Part shown: positions 1,152 through 64,000 of the stretch, one piece after another
Numbering within the stretch: the first letter of the stretch is position 1
Layout of the letters: every line of letters starts with the position of its first letter
Assembly: GCA_043818055.1 (NCBI GenBank)
Contig: JBDRGF010000159.1
Span: forward strand, 17,623 to 81,622
Length of the DNA: 64,000 nt
Reading direction: 5' to 3'
DNA from: Pseudomonadota bacterium
Lineage (GTDB): Bacteria; UBA10199; 2-02-FULL-44-16; JBDRGF01
Program-made: the position numbers and the translations under genes
The notes under the pieces: model-generated
What the model was told of the DNA's origin: nothing
Databases searched by the model: none
Seen by the model: only the letters and a program-made list of their open reading frames with translations

Positions 1152-2585
1152 TTAATACCGGAAATGCATGTCGGCAAGAATACTATTAAAGTCCTTTTCA
1201 ACATCTTTCCCTAACCGAAATACAAGACTCTCCAGATAAGAACTCTCAGAAAGCTGTCTTGACGCGGACTCAGTTAAACTCATATCGATAAGCGCCCGCA
1301 TCCAGCGTTCATCTACATTATACTTAACAAAAAAAGTGGTCATTTTTGTTAAATTTCTAATTTTTTTTGCTGTTTCCCGATCAAATCTAACAGATCCTTC
1401 GCCAGAATGCCACTCGTACTCGCATTTATCGTTTAACAAAACCCCATCATTGAGACATTTGTTGTAAAGTAAAGTGCCGGGATATAACATCAAAGGAAAA
1501 CACGTAGTAAAGCCGCCTGGAGCAACACGTTGACAAAGTTTGATTGTATCAAGGGCGTCTCCAAGTGGATCTTGGACGGGAAGTCCGATTATCACTTCTA
1601 ATTTTACTTTGATACCAAAACTACGAAGCCTTTCATAAGCTTTTTTAACCTGCTCTTCTTTTTGAAAAGTTCGATTGAAAAGGTTTAACGATTCTGGCCG
1701 CGCAGTCTGTACCCCCATTTGAACAGAACTTACAATCTTCGCCAAAGTGGTCAAAGCCTTATCAGATACCTTCATTACAGTTTGAGGCGTCACATTGGCA
1801 TATGTCGGCAAACCAATTTCCTTATTCCAAGCGTCCACAAATGATTCGATCCATGTTTCAGCCTCGGCACCTGCAAAAATATCATCATCTTCCAACGACA
1901 CTTCTCTCGTATCAAATTCAAGCAACACCTTAGCTTCTTTAATAAGCTCCTCTACGGGACGTCTCATCATCCAGTACTTATTATATTCAGTAGCACCATA
2001 ATGCTTCCGAAGTAATGAAGTAGTACAATAAGAACAGTTATATAAACAACCAAAATGCGACATGATGTATTTGCGATGTCTGTTTGCCATACGGGGAATT
2101 GACAAGTAATAATCACGTACAGACGGGTACATTACTTGGCTATCTACAGGTTTTCCTATGATAGTGCCTTTGCGCTCACTTTTTATAATTTTCTCCACTG
2201 TTCCGTACACCGGCCCTCTGACCAAAATATCGACTGCTTTACTTTCTATACATTCTGGAACGGCAAATGCATGCACACCGCCAAATACTGTCGAAGCTTC
2301 CGGTAACGCCGATTTTATCTTCATTGCAAGCTCTTCTGACTTTGAAAAAAATGTTGATAACGGAGAAAAACAGACAAAATTTGGCTTCCATTCCGATATT
2401 CTTGAAACCACATCAGGATCATCACCATCATACCATTTTACGTCATAGCCATGTCTTTCAAGCTCGCCGGCCACAAATGTAAGACCGTAAGCCATATCAT
2501 TACCTATGTGAATCAAAGCAAATTTTCTTGAATTCGATCTAATTTCTCCGACTGACGCCTTTGTTTTTTCACATGAGCAGTTCAA
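1152..2585 (-). CDS. B12-binding domain radical SAM enzyme (class B rSAM, probable methyltransferase)
   Basis: N-terminal cobalamin-binding-like region followed by CLYNCSYC, which fits CxxxCxxC. 477 aa. Confidence 0.8.
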   Translation of the reverse strand: MNCSCEKTKASVGEIRSNSRKFALIHIGNDMAYGLTFVAGELERHGYDVKWYDGDDPDVVSRISEWKPNFVCFSPLSTFFSKSEELAMKIKSALPEASTVFGGVHAFAVPECIESKAVDILVRGPVYGTVEKIIKSERKGTIIGKPVDSQVMYPSVRDYYLSIPRMANRHRKYIMSHFGCLYNCSYCTTSLLRKHYGATEYNKYWMMRRPVEELIKEAKVLLEFDTREVSLEDDDIFAGAEAETWIESFVDAWNKEIGLPTYANVTPQTVMKVSDKALTTLAKIVSSVQMGVQTARPESLNLFNRTFQKEEQVKKAYERLRSFGIKVKLEVIIGLPVQDPLGDALDTIKLCQRVAPGGFTTCFPLMLYPGTLLYNKCLNDGVLLNDKCEYEWHSGEGSVRFDRETAKKIRNLTKMTTFFVKYNVDERWMRALIDMSLTESASRQLSESSYLESLVFRLGKDVEKDFNSILADMHFRY

Positions 2586-3695: not shown

Positions 3696-4565
3696 CTATG
3701 GTCTGTTTGCCGAAAACACGATATCCTTCAAATGCCGCAGTGTCATTAAAGAATATTTTTTGTCGCTTACGGTATAAAATTGACAGACAGCCCGCTTTAT
3801 GAGCCTAATATAGAATATGAAATTTTCCATTTTCGATCCATAAGATTTCATAAAAAGTGTTTCAGCTTTGAGAATATTTAAATATCTTTTTTCATTCATG
3901 AATTTATCATAGTTTCTTACGGAAAGCTCGTGTTCAACAATCGAATCCATTACATAAATCTTATTGCCTATTTTGTTGATAGAATAAAACATCCATCTAT
4001 CTAAGCAGTCCATCCAAAACACTTCATTAAATCCACCGATTTTTTGCAAAACGGGAACTCTGACAGTGCTTCCAGAACCGATGGCACAGGCGTTTTTAAA
4101 CATACAAATACCTCTGTGTCGCCTGTCTATCGCCCTGACTATCCCGCCAAACCAAATCCTTGTCGGAGAAAATATATTATTCTTAAAGCACATCTTTGGA
4201 ACAACGGCGGCAATCTCGTCATTATCACCAACCTTGGAAAGATTATCCATCAGGCTGACAATAAAATCATCCGGCAATGATGAATCTTGATCCAAAAGAA
4301 GCAACCAGTCGCAGAAAGCATTAACCGCTTTACTCAACGCGTAATTGTACGCAACTGCCAAGCCTTTGTTGGTGTTGTCATGAACATATTCGCATTTAAA
4401 TACTGTGAAATCCAGACTTTGTATTGATGGACTATTATCGTAGACAATAAAGTTTATTTTCTCAAATGATTGAGAATCTCTCATATAATTCTTCAACAGG
4501 GAAATATATGTTTTACTATTCTCAATTACACAATTATAAACCACTATAATGACCGTTAAACTCAT
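3696..4565 (-). CDS. Family 2 glycosyltransferase (rhamnosyltransferase-like)
   Basis: TVIIVVYNC...YDNSPS N-terminal GT2 signature and LLLLDQDS DxD region. 4-nt overlap with the upstream gene. Confidence 0.7.
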   Translation of the reverse strand: MSLTVIIVVYNCVIENSKTYISLLKNYMRDSQSFEKINFIVYDNSPSIQSLDFTVFKCEYVHDNTNKGLAVAYNYALSKAVNAFCDWLLLLDQDSSLPDDFIVSLMDNLSKVGDNDEIAAVVPKMCFKNNIFSPTRIWFGGIVRAIDRRHRGICMFKNACAIGSGSTVRVPVLQKIGGFNEVFWMDCLDRWMFYSINKIGNKIYVMDSIVEHELSVRNYDKFMNEKRYLNILKAETLFMKSYGSKMENFIFYIRLIKRAVCQFYTVSDKKYSLMTLRHLKDIVFSANRP

Positions 4566-6313
4566 GGTCTACCCCGACACAATTTTTCTCTTAGCACAAA
4601 CATCTTATTTTGGATTCGTCTAAACAAGCTTCTACATTTACGCGGAATGCAACCTAACAATGCAATAATAAAATATGAGTTGCAGTACAATAATATATTT
4701 ATACTTACTGCGTGTCGAAAATCACTTATTCCATACACAGCATTAGCTATAGAACTCTCCAACTTACAAAAACGATCAAAATCTTTTTTGTTAAGCAAAA
4801 CATTTAGACTTGATGCAATTCTTATAATTAACAATCTCATCGAATGGGTTTTTAAAGCCGATGTCACATCAGGAATGTTCTTCAACGCTACAAGAAAATT
4901 ATATATAGCCCTGATCACCATCACATTAAGATCAATTTTATCGCGCCATTCCCACTCAGCATCAATAAAAATGCATTTATTATCAAATATAAAACAGTTA
5001 CTCCACAAACAATCCAAATACTTTCCATCAAGTAGTTCCACTCCCATCTCCTTCGTGCATAACGATTTAAGATAGTAAAGCCACAATTTGCATGGAGCAA
5101 ATATATCCTCTATAGAAACATTTATTTCTCTAACCCTCTTCAATATCTGCGCATGCAACGTCGGCTCGTTCAGCCATTCATCTTTACATGTATGAAGTGA
5201 CATCTTTCCCAACGTCACTACTTCAAGACCACATTGAGGTACTTTATTTACAAATATTCTTTTATTTTCGCATTCAAGAATTCTGGTCACTGTTTGAAAT
5301 TCGCTAATTCGATTTTCACTATAAGCCAAACCAAGTTGGTCAAATTTAATCGATGATATGTTATGCCTGCCAGCTATAACCAAGAATGAATTAGAAAAGA
5401 AAGGGAGTTGGTTGTTTTTATCTAGTTCTAAGAGAGCGATATTTTCATCGAATAATGGTTTTCTACGGCCTGAGTAATCTCGCGGCCTATAAAGACCCGC
5501 AAGCTCACCCGCTTTTATTTTATTGAAAGCCCTCTCCGCTAAAACACATGATGGTATTTTATAATCTGGGTACGGAAAATAAAATTCGACATTTTCATAG
5601 TATTTTTTAAGTCTTGATCGCAACTCATAATAACCAAACGTCCGTCCTCTGTTTTTAAAACGGGGATACCCTTCTATGCCATCGAACATAACATCCGTAT
5701 GGTCTTCGCTACTCGATGAAAAGTATTTCAATCCAAACTGGTTTTCAATTGCCAGAACGACTACTCCATCTGGTGTTAAAATATCTTTAAAATACTCAAG
5801 AATGTAATCATAAGGATTATCTTTATTCACAAAAGCATTTGAATACTCAAAAACGCCGACACAAAAAATTATATCGAAAGGCTCTTTAAAATCCACCTCG
5901 TGAAATGGGGCACAAAGCACCGAAACATTGTTCATATCCTTTGTGCGCAAACGCGCCAAACGTGCTCTACTCTCGCTACCTTCAACGGCAACAACATCAT
6001 CGAATGTTTCTGCAAGAAAGCGAGTGATTGCTCCGCAACCGCAACCAACCTCCAACACTTTTTTTGTTCTATCATACTCAAAACCACGAAGAAGTTGCGT
6101 TCGTTTTCTCGACAAATGATATTCGCTTGACCAATCCCTAATGTAGCGTTCTAGTTCGTACGACTTTGAGCTCAAATCAGTCGCTTTCCTAAATACCTTT
6201 TCGAGGTAATTCTCAAAGAAACGACCCTCTGAGTAATTTATCGTATTTCCGTTAGCAAGAACCCAAACTGACCCATCGTTAAGCTCTATTTTGTTATTAA
6301 CTCTTTTTTTCAT
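4562..6313 (-). CDS. Class I SAM-dependent methyltransferase fused to a ~350-aa C-terminal domain of unknown function
   Basis: VLEVGCGCGAITRFLAETFDDVVAVEGSE SAM-binding motif I in the N-terminal third. I do not recognise the C-terminal part. Confidence 0.65.
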   Translation of the reverse strand: MKKRVNNKIELNDGSVWVLANGNTINYSEGRFFENYLEKVFRKATDLSSKSYELERYIRDWSSEYHLSRKRTQLLRGFEYDRTKKVLEVGCGCGAITRFLAETFDDVVAVEGSESRARLARLRTKDMNNVSVLCAPFHEVDFKEPFDIIFCVGVFEYSNAFVNKDNPYDYILEYFKDILTPDGVVVLAIENQFGLKYFSSSSEDHTDVMFDGIEGYPRFKNRGRTFGYYELRSRLKKYYENVEFYFPYPDYKIPSCVLAERAFNKIKAGELAGLYRPRDYSGRRKPLFDENIALLELDKNNQLPFFSNSFLVIAGRHNISSIKFDQLGLAYSENRISEFQTVTRILECENKRIFVNKVPQCGLEVVTLGKMSLHTCKDEWLNEPTLHAQILKRVREINVSIEDIFAPCKLWLYYLKSLCTKEMGVELLDGKYLDCLWSNCFIFDNKCIFIDAEWEWRDKIDLNVMVIRAIYNFLVALKNIPDVTSALKTHSMRLLIIRIASSLNVLLNKKDFDRFCKLESSIANAVYGISDFRHAVSINILLYCNSYFIIALLGCIPRKCRSLFRRIQNKMFVLREKLCRGRP

Positions 6314-6317
6314 ATAC

Positions 6318-7844
6318 CTATTCTCCGGCTAAGTTGGTTTGACTTTCGCAGACAAGCACAGGTCTGAAAAGTTGAATACGGACTCGAATTCCTAGTGAAG
6401 TTAGAGTATTATTAATTATTCCTACAAGTGATTCTCCGAGAAGACTTGGAACAAACGAGACTATTAATAAAACCGAAATTACACTACTGCCAAGAACAAC
6501 ACAAAGAAACATCATATTGGATGATGTTAGTTGCCGGACTGTTGTAACAATTGGTAAAATAGTTAGTAACAATAAACTACCGATTATAATTCCATGTGTG
6601 TATAGTTTAAAATAATCTTTCAATCTGAATCTGACGATTGATTTACTTAATTGTATCATTAAAATATAGCCAATTACGTTAGCTATATCAACCGCAATGG
6701 CCACGCCTTTCAAACCGAAAAATGTTCCCACCCAGCTAAATGATATGATTACGAGTGCAGTTATTGCCTTTCGCACGGCACTTGCATATACGGCACCGGT
6801 TGCACGCACAAGAGTATCGGAGATGGTTATAAATATTCTACAAACAATAGTGAGTAACAAAATGCGGAATGGCCAAATGGAAGCTGACCAGTTAGGACCC
6901 AATAAAGTGTAAATTATTTCGGGTGCAATTAGAAACATCAGCACAGTTAGCGGAATTAAAGCAGTACTTACAATGCTCGTAGAAGTAAAGTAAGCTTTTT
7001 CTAACCTTCCTGCTTGGCTTTGAACTTGAGACATTGCTGGAAAAAGAGCTTTGTCCAGGACAAGATTAAGATGCTGACCGGGCATCGACATAATTGAAGA
7101 CGCCCTGTCATAGAAGCCTAAAGATGTAGAACCTAAAAAATGACCAATAATGAAATAATCACCTTGTGAGGCAATGCTATCAAATACTCTTGTTAACGTC
7201 AGACCTCCACCATAAGTCAGAAGTTCTTTATACTCGCTGCCAATTATAAATGGCCTCAAGGAGCCTGGTCTTATAAACAATAAACACGCTGTTTGCAGAC
7301 AACATTGAGTTAATTTTCCCACAACAATTGCCCATGCCCCAGATCCATGCATTGCCATTAAAATACCAACTAGAGCATACCCAAACACATATGAACCAAC
7401 ATCAATCCACATTAGGATATCAAACCTCATCTCCCGCTCTATGCGAGAACGGGAAACAATGCCTATTTTGGTAATCAACGCCGAAACCGCAATCCATCTT
7501 ATTATACTTATAAGACTTTCAGCCTTAAAAAAGGTCGCAATTAGTGGTGCGCACAACCATAATATCAACACAAAGAAGGTACCCAATATTATCGATAGAA
7601 AAAAACCTGCCCTTATATGTTTTTCAGTTAATTCCTCTTTTTGAATTATTGCCGGGCCAATACCAGCATCGGCAAACATATCCACAAAAATCATCACCAT
7701 ATTGGCCATGGCTATGTAGCCGAATTCTCTGGGCAAAACATATCGCGCCAATACTGCTAATACCAATAATTGCAAGACACCCTTTGCGACAACAGCCACA
7801 AGTTGCCAGCTTCCCGCTTTTATGGTTCGGTGTGTTAGAGTCAT
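6318..7844 (-). CDS. wzx: Oligosaccharide/O-antigen flippase Wzx (MOP superfamily)
   Basis: 508 aa with about 12-14 hydrophobic helices and the typical N-terminal KGVLQLLVLAVLARYVLPREFG Wzx-like region. Set in a polysaccharide locus. Confidence 0.7.
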   Translation of the reverse strand: MTLTHRTIKAGSWQLVAVVAKGVLQLLVLAVLARYVLPREFGYIAMANMVMIFVDMFADAGIGPAIIQKEELTEKHIRAGFFLSIILGTFFVLILWLCAPLIATFFKAESLISIIRWIAVSALITKIGIVSRSRIEREMRFDILMWIDVGSYVFGYALVGILMAMHGSGAWAIVVGKLTQCCLQTACLLFIRPGSLRPFIIGSEYKELLTYGGGLTLTRVFDSIASQGDYFIIGHFLGSTSLGFYDRASSIMSMPGQHLNLVLDKALFPAMSQVQSQAGRLEKAYFTSTSIVSTALIPLTVLMFLIAPEIIYTLLGPNWSASIWPFRILLLTIVCRIFITISDTLVRATGAVYASAVRKAITALVIISFSWVGTFFGLKGVAIAVDIANVIGYILMIQLSKSIVRFRLKDYFKLYTHGIIIGSLLLLTILPIVTTVRQLTSSNMMFLCVVLGSSVISVLLIVSFVPSLLGESLVGIINNTLTSLGIRVRIQLFRPVLVCESQTNLAGE

Positions 7845-52737: not shown

Positions 52738-52767
52738 TTTGCCTCCATATAAAAATACTGCCCTCAG

Positions 52768-52840
<73 letters not shown>

Positions 52841-53047
52841 ACTGAAAGCAGTTTTTAAAAACATCAAACTGAGTTCGCTTAGCTAGCTAATATGTGAAAA
52901 AAGATCAAGGGTTTAATCTCATGTTTGGGATATTTTAGCATCGGCATCACATAAACTGTTTATTTTTATTCCCACTTGATATCTGGCTGGAATTATGCTG
53001 AATTAAGCATCAGAAGCCCTTTTTAAGGGAACAAATTAGGAGGCAAC

Positions 53048-59076: not shown

Positions 59077-61311
59077 CTATTTTATACAAGCCGCTAATAA
59101 TTTCTCCGGTGTTATCGGCAGGTCGCGGATACGCACACCGATTGCATCATAAACCGCATTTGCGATCGCCGGAGCGGGGCCGTCCATCGGCAACTCCCCC
59201 AATCCCTTGCAGCCGCCGGCGCTGTATGAATATAAATTCTCTATAAAATGGACGTGCATCTTCGGGGCATCTAGCGCTGTCGGTATGAGATATGTCTGCA
59301 TGCGATCCGTTTTCACGTGCCCTTTATCCATGACAAAATTTTCGAGCAGCGCGTATCCGACGGCCTGAAGAGCGCCGCCCTCCACCTGTCCGGAAGCCAG
59401 CATCGGATTGACCACCTTTCCCACATCCTGGACGAGATGGAGATTGGTGAGTTTCACTTCAAATGTATTCATGTCGACTTCAACCTCTGCTATATTGGCT
59501 CCCCACGCAAATACGGGATAGGCATCCCCTTTGTAATTATGTTCATCCCATACGATACCGGGTGGAACCTGATACTGACGAATGACCTCGGTGGGACCGT
59601 TACTATCATAAAATTCCCGCGCGATTTCGATAAATCCTTTTTTAACTGGTGCAAAGCTCTCAATTCTATTCCTCAACTCCAATGCCGCATCGTACAACAC
59701 CTTTCCTATGACCATCGTCGTCCGCGATGCAACAGTCGGACCGCTATTTGGAACGACAGATGTATCCGGGGTTGCGACCTTAATATTTTCGATTGAGATA
59801 GCAAGTGCATCGGCGACTATCTGGGTCAAAACAGTATGAGAGCCCTGTCCCATCTCGGTCGATGCTGTTAGAATTGTAACTGAGCCATCCTTTTCCAAAC
59901 GTACACCGGCCTTCGATTTCAGACGATCCTCGCCGCTGCCTGTAAATCCGGCGCCGTGCAGAAACAACGAAATTCCGATGCCGCGCCTTTTCGAAGAATT
60001 CCTTTTCCATTTTGAATCGGGTTTGGACTTCTTTTCAAATTCGCTCATCGACGACGCCTTCTCCAGGACTTCCGATGCTGACACGCTCTCCTTGAGCCTT
60101 TGCCCCGTGGTGGTCTCGTCGTTTAACTTGAGGAGGTTTTTCCTGCGAAATTCCAGAGGTGACATTTTAAGCTCATTTGCTATCTCATCGATGTGCGACT
60201 CCAGCGCGAAGATCGACTGCGGCGCGCCAAAGCCTCTGAATGCGCCGTTTGGTGATGTGTTGGTGGCAAATGTTAAAGCATGTGCACTGAAATTTTCGAT
60301 CTTATAGGCGCCCCCCGAATGCAACACGCCCCTGGACAACACAACCGGGGAGAGAGACATATACGCGCCACCATCCAGAAAGAATCTTATCTCCATCGCC
60401 TTGATCGTTCCGTCGCTTAAAACGCCGGTCTTGTAATGCGCCTTTGCCGGATGGCGCTTCGTCGAGACGATTATATCCTCATTGCGATCGTAGATAATCT
60501 TGATGGGACGGCGTGCCTTGTATGAAAGGATGGCTGCATAACCTGCGATGACAGATGGATAATCCTCCTTGCCGCCAAACGCCCCACCGACAACGGCCTG
60601 ACGAACGGCGATGCGCGCATCGTCCCAGCCAAAAAGATATTTCATGGCATCGTGAACGTAATACGGACACTGAAGCGAACCGATTATCTCCATCACGCCA
60701 TCTTTACGAAAATCGGCGATCACGCTCTGAGGTTCGATATATAAGTGTTCTTGGTGACCGACGCTGTAATCACCCTCGATGATCAGATCGGAATTTTTGA
60801 ATCCTGCGTCAACATCACCCTTTACGATATCATAGGAGGCAAAGAGATTATCGTCGCCATATAAAACCCTCTTTTTCGAAAGCGACTCCTCCATCGTGAG
60901 GACTGGATCGATTGCCTCAAATTTGACTTCGACCCTCTTTCTCGCCTCGAGCGCCATCTCCCTTGTGGGTGCGGCAATCAGACATATCCCCTCACCGACA
61001 TAACGAAACTCAGCCGTAGCAAGCAGCGGCATATCTTTTTCTATCATCGCCACACAGTTTTTTCCGGGAATATCATCGGCAGTTGCCACAACGACCTTAG
61101 ACCAATCAAAGGAGGGATCGAAATCTACAGATGTGATGCGCCCAGCTGGGGCCTTCGCCCTCACAACAGCGCCATGCCACATGCCGGGAAGCACGATATC
61201 GTCGACATATTTTGCTATTCCAAGCGCTTTATCATGAGCATCAACACGAGGTGTATTTTGTCCTATAAAATTCATCACGTTATTTTTGCTGGAAGCACTG
61301 TAAAAAGACAA
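59077..61311 (-). CDS. Molybdopterin-binding large subunit of the XDH/aldehyde oxidoreductase family
   Basis: 744 aa. Ald_Xan_dh N-terminal a/b hammerhead region and MoCo-binding domain patterns (GGAFGGK, GQG...E). Confidence 0.85.
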   Translation of the reverse strand: MSFYSASSKNNVMNFIGQNTPRVDAHDKALGIAKYVDDIVLPGMWHGAVVRAKAPAGRITSVDFDPSFDWSKVVVATADDIPGKNCVAMIEKDMPLLATAEFRYVGEGICLIAAPTREMALEARKRVEVKFEAIDPVLTMEESLSKKRVLYGDDNLFASYDIVKGDVDAGFKNSDLIIEGDYSVGHQEHLYIEPQSVIADFRKDGVMEIIGSLQCPYYVHDAMKYLFGWDDARIAVRQAVVGGAFGGKEDYPSVIAGYAAILSYKARRPIKIIYDRNEDIIVSTKRHPAKAHYKTGVLSDGTIKAMEIRFFLDGGAYMSLSPVVLSRGVLHSGGAYKIENFSAHALTFATNTSPNGAFRGFGAPQSIFALESHIDEIANELKMSPLEFRRKNLLKLNDETTTGQRLKESVSASEVLEKASSMSEFEKKSKPDSKWKRNSSKRRGIGISLFLHGAGFTGSGEDRLKSKAGVRLEKDGSVTILTASTEMGQGSHTVLTQIVADALAISIENIKVATPDTSVVPNSGPTVASRTTMVIGKVLYDAALELRNRIESFAPVKKGFIEIAREFYDSNGPTEVIRQYQVPPGIVWDEHNYKGDAYPVFAWGANIAEVEVDMNTFEVKLTNLHLVQDVGKVVNPMLASGQVEGGALQAVGYALLENFVMDKGHVKTDRMQTYLIPTALDAPKMHVHFIENLYSYSAGGCKGLGELPMDGPAPAIANAVYDAIGVRIRDLPITPEKLLAACIK

Positions 61312-61408
61312 GACAAAAAACGTGAAGCCTAAAAACGTGAAGCGTCCACGCGTGACGCGTGAAGCGAAAAAAAAGGAGCAGCATTACTGCGCCACCTTAT
61401 ATTCTCAA

Positions 61409-62533
61409 TCAGTACTCCTGAGATAAATAGTATGCAAAGAACGGATCGGCGATGCGCACACCATTTTCGTCCTTTTCGACATATCCTTTATCCATGAGCA
61501 GGTTACACATCTGAGACATCCCTCTCGCTGAAATTCCACTTTCAGAAACCGTCGCTTGCGATGTGACCTCCTTAATGTATCCGTTTTTTGCAATCACAGA
61601 AAGAAACTTGACCTGTTTTATACTCAAAAATGCAACCTTTTCAGCATATCGGCTCTGTGCATCGAGGTATCCATGATGGATGATGTTTTTAATCTCCGAA
61701 ATTTCGACAGCCTCATGTTCATGAGAGTTGTAAATATCAGAACAGAGCTTACATATATAGTTAGGGATATGATATCCGCTTTGAATGATGAATCTCAACG
61801 CATCATCATCCAATCGAATTTTTTTGTTTTTCATTCTCTCCAGTATATACGGCTTCCAATTTTCAAAGCTTATCTCTTTCAACTCCAGGCTTTTTCCCCA
61901 GTTATAAAATGGCCTTCGCTCGTCAAGAAAGATATCCTTGAGAAGATGTTTCTTAGACCCTGAGATGATGATGGAGCCCTTATTCAATTTCTGGGTCAAA
62001 TCTCTTAACAGTGCTTCTGCCTCTGGCACGAAAACCACATCCTGAAACTCATCCATGACAAGAAGAAGGGGATATTCGCTGCCTAATCCTAATAAAGAGT
62101 TAAAAATATCATGAAGGCTTCTTTTATCTGTTGTTTCTGTCGATATGGTGAGCTTTGTCTCACCAGATAATGAATCGACCTTGATCTCCGGACGCAAAGA
62201 TTTCAGAAGCTTTAATATATTGGAGGCTATCACTTTTATTGAAAAAACTTTATTGATCACATCTGTCAGCGCATGTGAGAAACGAATTGCTATCGAATCA
62301 AGATCCTTCACCTCCTGCAAGTTCACGTAACAAAAGATTGCGCTTTTTTTCCTCGCAAGAAAATGTTTACCTGTCACATTGACCAGCACAGAGGTCTTTC
62401 CAAATCGACGGGGGGCGAAGAGAAGAATTTTTTCACCACCGTTGACATATCTATCAAGCCTTTTTATCTCCTCCTCGTAGTTACAGATATCCTCTTCGTC
62501 TATCAACACGTCATATTTAAACATGGCTTCCAA
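61409..62533 (-). CDS. AAA ATPase (archaeal-type ATPase_2 + DUF234)
   Basis: LLFAPRRFGKTSVL Walker A, LLVMDEFQ Walker B, and a C-terminal DUF234-like region. Confidence 0.65.
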   Translation of the reverse strand: MEAMFKYDVLIDEEDICNYEEEIKRLDRYVNGGEKILLFAPRRFGKTSVLVNVTGKHFLARKKSAIFCYVNLQEVKDLDSIAIRFSHALTDVINKVFSIKVIASNILKLLKSLRPEIKVDSLSGETKLTISTETTDKRSLHDIFNSLLGLGSEYPLLLVMDEFQDVVFVPEAEALLRDLTQKLNKGSIIISGSKKHLLKDIFLDERRPFYNWGKSLELKEISFENWKPYILERMKNKKIRLDDDALRFIIQSGYHIPNYICKLCSDIYNSHEHEAVEISEIKNIIHHGYLDAQSRYAEKVAFLSIKQVKFLSVIAKNGYIKEVTSQATVSESGISARGMSQMCNLLMDKGYVEKDENGVRIADPFFAYYLSQEY

Positions 62534-62545
62534 CCCTCCTAAAAT

Positions 62546-62609
62546 ATTGATTATACTAAAAGTATAATACTGTTAGTATCATATATATTATACTTTTAGT
62601 ATAATCAAG
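62546..62609. promoter_or_regulatory. 23-bp perfect inverted repeat (16-nt spacer), 13 bp upstream of the AAA ATPase start
   Basis: TTGATTATACTAAAAGTATAATA ctgttagtatcatata TATTATACTTTTAGTATAATCAA. The arms contain TATAAT-like boxes. Confidence 0.7.
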
Positions 62610-62626
62610 AATAAAATTTACACATT

Positions 62627-62656
62627 AAAAAAACGGGCGGATCATCGATCCGCCCA
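62627..62656 (-). terminator. Rho-independent terminator of rpoD
   Basis: On the minus strand, gggcggatcgatgatccgccc followed by a T7 run. Confidence 0.7.
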
Positions 62657-62696
62657 ACTTAAACACTCAAACACTCCTACACTTAAACACTCACAC

Positions 62697-64000
62697 CTAC
62701 CAATCAATAAAACTCTTCAGCTTCTTAGCACGACTGGGGTGGCGCAGCTTTCTCAAAGCTTTGGCTTCGATCTGTCTGATACGCTCCCTCGTCACGGAGA
62801 AATCTCGGCCCACCTCTTCGAGCGTATGATCCGATTTCTCACCTATGCCGAATCTCATCCTGAGCACCTTCTCCTCACGCGGTGTGAGAGTAGATAGAAT
62901 CTCCTGAGTCTGTTCGGAGAGATTTAAATATGAGACTGCATCGGAGGGTTTGACGACCGATTTGTCCTCGATGAAATCACCAAGGTGGCTATCCTCCTCC
63001 TCGCCGATCGGCGTCTCTAGGGAGATCGGCTCTTTTGCGATCTTGAGCACCTTTCTCACCTTCTCAACCGGCAACTCCATCTTCTCGGCTATCTCTTCAG
63101 GAAGCGGCTCTCTTCCCAGCTCCTGAACGAGGTAGCGGGATGTCCTCACAAGCTTGTTGATCGTCTCGATCATATGGACAGGGATCCTGATCGTGCGCGC
63201 CTGATCGGCGATCGCTCTGGTTATCGCCTGTCGTATCCACCACGTTGCGTACGTGGAAAATTTATATCCCCTCCTGTATTCGAACTTATCGACAGCCTTC
63301 ATGAGGCCTATGTTGCCCTCCTGAATCAGATCCAGAAACTGCAATCCACGATTTGTATATTTCTTCGCGATGGAGACGACCAGCCTCAAATTCGCTTCGA
63401 TCAACTCGCACTTTGCCCTCTCAGCGAACTGCTCAGCCCGTTTTACTTCGAGGTAAGTCTGTCGCAAGCTCTCAACGTCCTGTCCTGCCACCTTCTCCAG
63501 ATCCTTTATAGCGGCAACGATCTCTGAATATTCCTTTGATAAATCCAGGACATCGTTTCTCGACAGCCCTGACTGCTTTGTGAGCTTTCTCTTCTGATAA
63601 TCATTTCTCTTGAATTCGACAAAGAGTTTTTTCAAATCCTTCCGGTCAGATTCAAGCTTATGCGCCATCTTCTTGACGGCGTACTGATGTTTATCGATAT
63701 CCTCAACCTTGTCGTGCAGAAGCTCGATGATCCTGTCGATCGTGCGAGTCGCAAGGCTCATATCCTTGACATGTTCGAGCATCTTCTCTTTGAGATCCTT
63801 CTGCTGTCCCATGAGTTTAGTCTTCACGGCTTCACTGATCCGCGACCTCTTGAGCTTATCCTGAACGGAGTTCAACTGTTTTAGACTTGTTTTGAGTTTC
63901 GAAACCGCTTTGAGAAAATCTGCCTTGCACTTCTGTTCGTCAAATGTCTCCTCGGTCGAATCGATATCCTCAATCTCTTTGATCACCTCGATGACCCTGA
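62697..64000 (-). CDS. rpoD: RNA polymerase primary sigma factor (sigma-70); N-terminus beyond the window end
   Basis: Regions 2-4 are fully recognisable, including ...[52 protein letters not shown].... The frame stays open to the window edge. Confidence 0.9.

Follow-up and report, generated by a model that had tools for sequence, protein, structure and literature searches.

The stretch of DNA analysed here, referred to as the window, comprises 64,000 nucleotides of contig JBDRGF010000159.1 (assembly GCA_043818055.1, Pseudomonadota bacterium), and the element under study is a long perfect inverted repeat located between the sigma-70 gene rpoD (encoding regions 2, 3 and 4) and a gene encoding an ATPase of 371 residues. 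rpoD, the repeat and the ATPase gene are all carried by the minus strand, as are the flanking genes on both sides, and xanthine-dehydrogenase-type genes are found downstream. rpoD ends at position 62697 and is followed by an intrinsic terminator; because this terminator sits there, the promoter region of the ATPase gene is bounded on its upstream side. The repeat takes up 62 of the 99 nt that separate the T-run of the terminator (62624) from the ATG of the ATPase gene (62524), leaving 15 nt between the T-run and the repeat, and 22 nt between the repeat and the ATG, in which an AGGAGG Shine-Dalgarno (SD) sequence is found. The coordinates of all features are collected in Table 1.

The repeat consists of two 23-nt arms (62547-62569 and 62586-62608) that are complementary at 100% of their positions and are separated by a 16-nt spacer. 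It had been described in the initial annotation as a perfect 23-bp inverted repeat, far beyond chance, lying immediately upstream of an ATPase gene and carrying TATAAT-like boxes. This description is accurate: the sequence quoted there is exact and TATAAT hexamers are present in both arms, the span given (62546-62609) exceeding the true one by a single base at either end. For perfect inverted repeats of 23 nt or more with loops no longer than 40 nt, the number expected in 64 kb is about 1e-7 at the composition of the window, and 8e-7 at 31% GC. The element is the sole long perfect inverted repeat of the window, the next best being 23 nt long at 87%, and a search for the 23-mer with up to 3 mismatches returned the two arms alone (0 of 100 shuffles with any match).

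Each 23-nt arm is a composite of palindromes of 13-19 bp, and not one long site. Three exact matches to ATACT-N3-AGTAT (at 62553, 62567 and 62590) were found in the repeat and none elsewhere in the 64 kb; the two outer ones extend to ATTATAC-N5-GTATAAT (19 bp), and the distances between successive palindrome centres, followed along the gene strand, are 23 and 14 bp. The repeat reads, on that strand, TTGATT-ATACTaaaAGTAT-aatatatatg-ATACTaacAGTAT-t-ATACTtttAGTAT-aatcaa. What produces the long perfect repeat is the presence, in both orientations, of the outer palindrome together with its asymmetric centre and TTG/CAA flanks, and the symmetry is perfect even across the bases of the spacer.

Close homologues were defined as ten non-redundant loci whose encoded proteins are 49-60% identical to the window ATPase. 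The flanking genes differ at all ten loci (for example peptidase S8, UvrA-like, MazG, radical SAM, HEPN/MNT toxin-antitoxin and DUF1016 genes), and a pair of palindromes of the form (G/A/T)TACT-N3-AGTA(C/T/A), with a 14-bp spacing, is present in every one of them, 10-40 nt before the SD sequence and the start codon. The block of this close family can be written TT-[GTACT aaa AGTAT]-T-[GTACT aaa AGTAC] (consensus of alignment A2, TTGACATTGTACTAAnAGTATTGTACTAAAAGTACAA), the outer base of the half-site being G, A or T and varying symmetrically on both sides. In the same alignment the middle palindrome of the window corresponds to the first member of the conserved pair and the proximal palindrome to the second, with their centres 14 bp apart as in the homologues, and the distal palindrome is absent from the close homologues. 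No long hairpin is found at these loci, which carry only tandem palindromes of 5-7 bp.

A hexamer of the type TTGAC(A/G/T) or TTGATG directly precedes the palindrome pair in nine of the ten close loci, locus L164 being the one without it. In the window, TATATA replaces the TTGACA of the homologues, and the outer end of the extra distal palindrome supplies TTGATT, located 17 nt before TATATG. In the close relatives, a -35-like hexamer fused to the first half-site (9/10), with palindromes laid over the spacer, the -10 position and the start region, is the classical promoter-occlusion layout, as far as the promoter can be predicted from the alignment.

Distant homologues comprised 160 loci (proteins 23-32% identical) from Bacteroidales, Campylobacterota, Desulfovibrionales, Kiritimatiellia, Verrucomicrobiota, Spirochaetia, Ignavibacteriota, Bdellovibrionota-like metagenome-assembled genomes and others; cultivable carriers of distant members are Aliarcobacter cryaerophilus LMG 9065 (L032), Desulfovibrio sp. 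7SRBS1 (L053) and Parabacteroides distasonis (H1). Long perfect inverted repeats lie 40-200 nt before the start at many of these loci; their words vary and their design is alike, examples being ATTATGCAAAAAAGCATTATGCA/aaaa/... (L059), CATTACGCAAAATTGCGTTACGCA (L138) and GACTACACTAAAAGGACTACAC (L087). Of the 119 non-redundant upstream regions, 17.6% contain a perfect inverted repeat of 12 nt or more, the corresponding values being 0.4% for random windows and 0.3% for shuffles. Perfect repeats of 15 nt or more are present in 11.3% of upstream regions and in 0.7% of the remaining intergenic DNA of these loci, whose G+C is similar. Among upstream 6-mers, ATTATG/CATAAT is the most enriched (8.5-fold, 61 of 124 loci), followed by GCATAA, GCGTAA, TTATGT and GTATAA; read from these words, the family-wide half-site is ATTAYRC, and the ATTATAC of the window is one form of it. 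At least three half-sites within 70 nt are found in 51% of the upstream regions (12.5% of other intergenic regions, 5% of random windows, 13% of shuffles). Exact 7-N-7 palindromes are matched 88 times in the 170 nt before the ATPase start and 3 times elsewhere in 272 kb of the same loci. The case of a common repeat unrelated to gene starts, envisaged in the initial annotation, is contradicted by this count and by the uniqueness of the repeat in the window.

Promoter-like elements accompany the arrays in two of these distant groups. In Desulfovibrionales the array is fused to TTGAC and reaches the ATG (TTGACTATTGtttttCAATAATttaaaaaCAATAAccATG), and the array of Campylobacterota lies over a TATTAT box resembling a -10. 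In four Desulfovibrionales loci (L053, L031, L117 and L145), the last 45 nt before the start codon hold TTGACT, a 17-nt spacer and TAAAAA, the last ending some 8 nt upstream of the ATG; leaderless mRNAs may thus be made from these genes, the operator then spanning the whole promoter.

Linkage was used to identify the candidate binder. No neighbouring gene is conserved. No cluster of neighbours extends beyond 11 of about 158 loci, and the largest have unrelated functions (sugar dehydratase/epimerase, AAA_14/DUF4143 ATPase, nucleotidyltransferase, four-helix-bundle protein); because of this, the ATPase gene is the only one consistently linked to the sites. Moreover, the half-site word differs between types of recognition helix. 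Proteins with RG(I/M)SQ are associated with (G/A)TACT, and two close-family proteins with RG(I/L)L(T/M)I with TTACT..AGTAA; GSFQTA (Campylobacterota) is found with ATTATGT-N5-ACATAA, GGVQ(S/A)A (Desulfovibrionales) with ACTATTG-N5-CAATAAT, and SSVxK with GACCACT-N3-AGTGGCC. Within the xTLQRx clade, QRS goes with TTACGC in 6 of 6 cases and QRA with TTATGC in 11 of 14 (Fisher p=0.002, without phylogenetic correction). In these cases the word tracks the recognition-helix type, as would be predicted for direct readout by the ATPase's own winged helix.

Two further observations were made on the neighbourhoods. Genes for AAA_14 plus DUF4143 ATPases, which belong to a different, uncharacterised family, are among the commonest neighbours (11 loci, for example L163 545-1864, L072 2237-3898 and 5408-6745, and L099 1288-2523). 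HEPN/MNT-type toxin-antitoxin pairs are also frequent neighbours of the ATPase family.

The protein itself is poorly covered by profile libraries. On the whole sequence, Pfam gives ATPase_2 (PF01637) at 19.6 bits, below the gathering cut-off of 33.2, and AAA_14 at 32 bits (cut-off 27) over 70 residues only. DUF234 (PF03008), the label proposed in the initial annotation, was not matched at E<=0.01 on the whole protein nor at E<=10 on residues 255-371; as DUF234 is a PD-(D/E)XK nuclease-type domain (PMC3424549) and the C-terminus shows no match to it, the label is wrong. The C-terminal 117 residues give sub-threshold matches to winged-helix families (MarR_2 and SarA/Rot, at 17 bits versus 27, CARF-associated helix-turn-helix, and the MCM_C winged helix-turn-helix). 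An NCBIfam search of the ATPase returned nothing meaningful, and the PADLOC defence library gave weak partial matches only (Avs1a at 5.7e-5 over the winged-helix region, mad8 at 1e-3), on which the ATPase was not placed in any defence system.

In the AlphaFold2 model (21 close homologues, mean pLDDT 82.7), an AAA+ module is followed by a canonical, confidently modelled winged helix. Residues invariant in the close family are the Walker A GKT (42-44), the Walker B DE (158-159) and, within the winged helix, S332, R334, G335, K346 and R357. The best Foldseek matches in the PDB are the archaeal proteins PABY2304 (2qen, 8.9e-14) and SSO1545 (2fna, 2.9e-12), with TM scores of 0.63-0.70 and 16-17% identity, followed by Orc1/Cdc6 proteins (2qby, 1fnn, 2v1u and 1w5s; E 4e-10 to 1e-8, 13-15% identity), among which are origin-DNA-bound structures; the sole sequence-level match in the PDB is 2qen (E 4e-4). 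Judged on the predicted model, the ATPase is a PF01637-like AAA+ protein with a C-terminal winged helix, whose fold matches two solved members of the family despite a Pfam score below threshold. The family is large, with at least 1,026 clusters (50% identity) matching at E<=1e-10, nearly all of 370-385 residues.

Taken together, these data are best explained if the repeat is a promoter-overlapping operator read by the ATPase's own winged helix and used for autoregulation. A probability of roughly 0.55 is given to this explanation, in which the sites, their position and conservation, the fold and the agreement between word and helix are observed, and the binder, the direction of regulation, the exact promoter and any role of ATP are inferred; the more general claim, that the repeat is a protein-binding operator controlling the ATPase gene, is considered quite probable. 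The three dyad sites, extending from the -35-like TTGATT to 22 nt before the ATG, would leave no plausible -35, -10 or start-site position uncovered. Each palindrome would be recognised by a dimer of the winged helix (a candidate two-domain target is ATTATACTAAAAGTATAAT), and neighbouring dimers, 14 and 23 bp apart, would perhaps be bridged by the ATPase domains, the AAA+ module possibly oligomerising with ATP. Occupied sites would then block RNA polymerase, resulting in negative autoregulation that may be ATP-dependent. Promoter overlap and operator control had both been proposed in the initial annotation. They are favoured by the location of the repeat where the promoter must be, by the conserved array and by the -35-like hexamer fused to it in nine of the ten close homologues; the view of the arm as one long site is not retained, since the arm is composite. 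The comparative data also suggest the ATPase's own winged helix as the repressor, which had been left unnamed.

Several observations weigh against this explanation. A standard scan for the sigma-70 consensus called no promoter hexamer pair on the gene strand inside the repeat, for which reason the promoter assignments were derived from the alignment, and the hexamer found at the conserved -10 position, TACTTT or TACTAA, is a weak one. The large clade with the STTQKA helix has no ATTAYRC arrays. In the Bacteroidales clade with the SSVQKN helix, the array is located 105-141 nt before the ATG, apparently upstream of a TAnnTTTG -7 box, a placement that is at odds with simple promoter occlusion. 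Five loci possess a second, near-identical array downstream, so that the gene is flanked by direct copies (Table 1); in L078 this second copy lies between convergent gene ends and therefore cannot be a promoter element. The perfect symmetry, extending into the spacer, exceeds what three independent dimer sites need. Finally, the agreement between helix and word could come from shared ancestry rather than from direct readout.

Some of these observations would be accommodated if the array were mainly a cis-acting assembly or loading site of an Orc1/Cdc6-like ATPase, in the manner of ORB boxes, DnaA boxes or Rep iterons, where ATP-dependent oligomers remodel, loop or mark the DNA and autoregulation is a by-product. 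The off-promoter array of the Bacteroidales clade, the downstream arrays of the five loci (which fit paired or looping sites) and the symmetry of the spacer bases are in its favour, together with a fold near that of origin-DNA-bound Orc1/Cdc6, ranked after the two archaeal PF01637 structures, and with arrays that mix inverted and direct repeats at a 14-bp period, like Rep iteron/operator sets. Such a role is nevertheless unlikely, though worth keeping in view. The sites of the window, like those of nine of the ten close homologues, occupy a classical operator position, fused to a -35-like hexamer and abutting the SD sequence; a spacer of 16 nt could not accommodate an unwinding element; the cumulative GC skew falls steadily across 60-64 kb, with no sign change at the repeat, and the flanking genes are co-directional. 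Moreover, few plasmid records (5 of 72,556) and phage records (1 of 50,697) carry a member of the family, and the window itself, having no second array, lends no support. A replication function for the window site is unlikely, tests for an origin having failed on the skew and on the unwinding region. An operator for a different, unlinked host repressor, with the ATPase gene merely regulated by it, is improbable. Palindromes in a promoter position would suit any dimeric helix-turn-helix repressor, and the search for further sites covered only 64 kb of this genome; against this, the arrays follow the ATPase family across phyla and through unrelated neighbourhoods, with no conserved neighbour, the half-site word varies together with the recognition helix of the ATPase itself, and an unlinked repressor would need to co-migrate with the gene every time.

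The initial annotation had offered a recombination or att-like site as an alternative, and the array plus the ATPase gene could also be seen as a small mobile cassette of which the repeat is a boundary. The gene is solitary, found in unrelated contexts, and often near toxin-antitoxin and DUF4143 ATPase genes, and in L078, L021, L092, L152 and L072 direct copies of the array lie on both sides of the gene or of a two-gene unit. The idea thus has a footing in the homologues; it is weak in the window, where there is no second copy and no recombinase gene among the flanking genes examined. It is considered very improbable: the flanking arrays are seen in just 5 of about 130 loci, no neighbour family, recombinases included, is common to the homologue loci, the G+C of the ATPase gene equals the window average (0.398 versus 0.397), and the half-site is tied to the gene family and its recognition helix, unlike a general recombination core. 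A broader proposal, in which array and gene are a self-contained module moving between genomes, the array being the assembly site of an Orc1/Cdc6- or Rep-like ATP switch and paired arrays serving for looping or for insertion and excision, is likewise distinctly unlikely; if true, it would be a minimal DNA-bound ATPase element of a kind not described before from bacteria, with a selfish or a defensive nature conceivable. Less probable still is a role as an RNA hairpin of the 5' leader, either as an attenuator or as a control on translation or stability. A transcript of the repeat would fold into a 24-bp hairpin ending 8 nt before the SD sequence (111-nt stretch, minimum free energy -28.2 kcal/mol, z = -4.7 versus shuffles). 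The short tandem palindromes of the close homologues, however, would give negligible RNA stems, and conservation of the half-site across phyla holds for both orientations, a trait of DNA sites; no relevant Rfam 15 match was found at E<=1 in 61000-64000, nor any gathering-level match in 14 homologue loci. The 15 nt between the rpoD T-run and the repeat leave little room for an upstream promoter, and the stem is all A+T with four T after it, the terminator scan calling the rpoD terminator and not the repeat. As for a chance palindrome in an A+T-rich spacer (local G+C is just 0.31), or a dispersed repeat such as a miniature inverted-repeat transposable element (MITE) or a repetitive extragenic palindrome (REP), the expected number given above, the single-copy status in the window at up to 3 mismatches and the recurrence of the design upstream of homologues effectively refute it.

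Table 1. Coordinates of the features discussed. Positions are those of the window, except for the last five rows, where they are those of the named homologue locus.
Feature	Position	Strand	Remarks
rpoD intrinsic terminator	62624..62656	-	10-bp G+C-rich stem (62656-62634) and T-run to 62624
Whole inverted repeat, read as a composite operator	62547..62608		Two 23-nt arms and 16-nt A+T-rich spacer; from repeat search
Gene-distal arm (upstream on gene strand)	62586..62608		Gene-strand reading TTGATTATACTAAAAGTATAATA
Gene-proximal arm	62547..62569		Gene-strand reading TATTATACTTTTAGTATAATCAA
Distal 19-bp palindrome, ATTATAC-N5-GTATAAT	62587..62605		Core ATACT-N3-AGTAT at 62590-62602
Middle palindrome, ATACT-GTT-AGTAT	62567..62579		
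Proximal 19-bp palindrome, ATTATAC-N5-GTATAAT	62550..62568		Core at 62553-62565
TTGATT, -35-like hexamer	62603..62608	-	Outer end of distal arm; read from the sequence, putative promoter role
TATATG, candidate -10	62580..62585	-	17 nt after TTGATT; putative, not called by consensus scan
TATATA	62582-62587	-	Overlaps TATATG; at the homologues' TTGACA position in alignment A2
TACTTT, putative -10 in proximal palindrome	62559..62564	-	Position 17 nt after the homologues' TTGACA (there TACTAA or TACTTT)
TATAAT, perfect hexamer	62550..62555	-	25 nt before ATG; no good -35 partner; among close homologues seen only in L167 and L168
Shine-Dalgarno AGGAGG	62535..62540	-	10 nt before ATG; GGAGG-type at the equivalent place in most close homologues
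ATPase gene, 371 aa	61409..62524	-	AAA+ domain and C-terminal winged helix; followed by its own terminator
C-terminal winged-helix coding region (residues ~300-371)	61412..61627	-	Helices 302-314 and 323-329, recognition helix 333-346, beta-hairpin wing 349-358; proposed palindrome reader
L078 arrays	2555-2590 and 3703-3750		Second copy 23 nt after stop, between convergent gene ends
L021 arrays	~3848-3927 and 5381-5460		Second copy ~280 nt after stop, before nagB; 80-nt repeat
L092 arrays	~250-285 and 1784-1819		Second copy ~280 nt after stop, before nagB
L152 arrays	~812-863 and 2128-2150		Second copy partial
L072 arrays	3921-3955 and 6817-6851		Second copy after adjacent DUF4143 ATPase gene; two-gene unit flanked

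Additional observations were made at the locus and in its homologues. Recent horizontal transfer was considered on the basis of composition, the ATPase gene being G+C-poor beside rpoD and the xanthine dehydrogenase gene, and was rejected since its G+C equals the window mean. An identical ATPase gene with its repeat is present in JGI metagenome sample 3300014656, on a 3.8-kb contig. This contig, Ga0180007_10034866 (L001/L082), an independent assembly, stops 98 nt before the ATG, at a point 14 nt past the repeat and just short of the rpoD terminator; its assembly may have been broken at hairpin-forming sequences. Between the rpoD stop and the terminator (62657-62696), three overlapping copies of a 16-nt unit, ACTTAAACACTCAAAC, are found with start spacings of 8 and 16 nt and 81-100% identity. 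The runner-up inverted repeat of the window (52753-52856) overlaps a tRNA-Lys(CTT) gene (52767-52840) and is unrelated. In the STTQKA-helix clade, ATPase genes are found among short genes separated by a recurring repeat of 25-100 nt, an organisation that resembles a cassette array; the repeat is GCAAAACGCTAAAATGCAAGACCTGACCCC in L076 (1869, 2926, 3702 and 4270) and a 98-nt unit in L118 (3704, 5183, 5614 and 6622), and further loci of this kind are L108 (1042, 1683, 2387, 6532 and 7049), L133, L127 and L161.

The most conspicuous palindrome of the 64 kb is, on the operator interpretation, an element of an ordinary kind and not an exotic one. What is new is the site-plus-protein module, predicted from the comparison to be conserved and co-varying, of a large uncharacterised ATPase family. 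For a bacterial branch of this family, each protein is predicted to have a cognate palindromic array beside its own gene, with a word that tracks the recognition helix. Defined DNA probes are thereby provided, as well as a small natural set of helix/site pairs for the study of winged-helix specificity. In the library searched, no paper on PF01637/COG1672 'archaeal ATPase', PABY2304 or Cdc6-like ATPases was found to give a function or a DNA target for the family.

Compared with known systems, proteins combining ATPase_2 and DUF234 share an N-terminal AAA+ module of the same broad type, and differ by the DUF234 domain, which was not detected in the window ATPase. PABY2304 and SSO1545 are the best structural matches and have the same domain order; their identity to the window ATPase is 16-17%, however, and the latter scores below the ATPase_2 gathering cut-off. 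Their PDB structures were released in 2006 and 2008, and to our knowledge both are structural-genomics entries without a defined target DNA. The archaeal Orc1/Cdc6 proteins with their ORB and mini-ORB boxes (2qby, 2v1u) resemble the present case by the association of AAA+ and C-terminal winged-helix domains, and by inverted repeats that flank an A+T-rich stretch upstream of the protein's own gene. Unlike an archaeal origin, the window site belongs to a bacterial host (which has rpoD), its ATPase shows 13-15% identity to these proteins, its spacer is 16 nt long, and neither a GC-skew switch nor co-located replication genes accompany it.

The DnaA boxes in the dnaA promoter, and the Rep iterons and inverted repeats before rep genes, are arrays of the initiator's own sites in which direct and inverted copies are mixed and the inverted copies serve for autorepression. 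The window ATPase has no homology to DnaA domain IV or to the winged-helix pairs of Rep, and its gene is chromosomal, solitary and almost absent from plasmids. Winged-helix autorepressors of the MarR and SarA/Rot types have in common with the present system dyad sites whose half-sites are about one helical turn apart and which lie over or next to a -35-like element and the SD sequence, and a presumed reader that is the winged helix encoded by the adjacent gene. They differ from it in that the reader is there a small dimeric regulator, whereas here it would be the C-terminal domain of a 371-residue AAA+ ATPase, and in that three or four sites are here combined in each array with a perfect higher-order symmetry.

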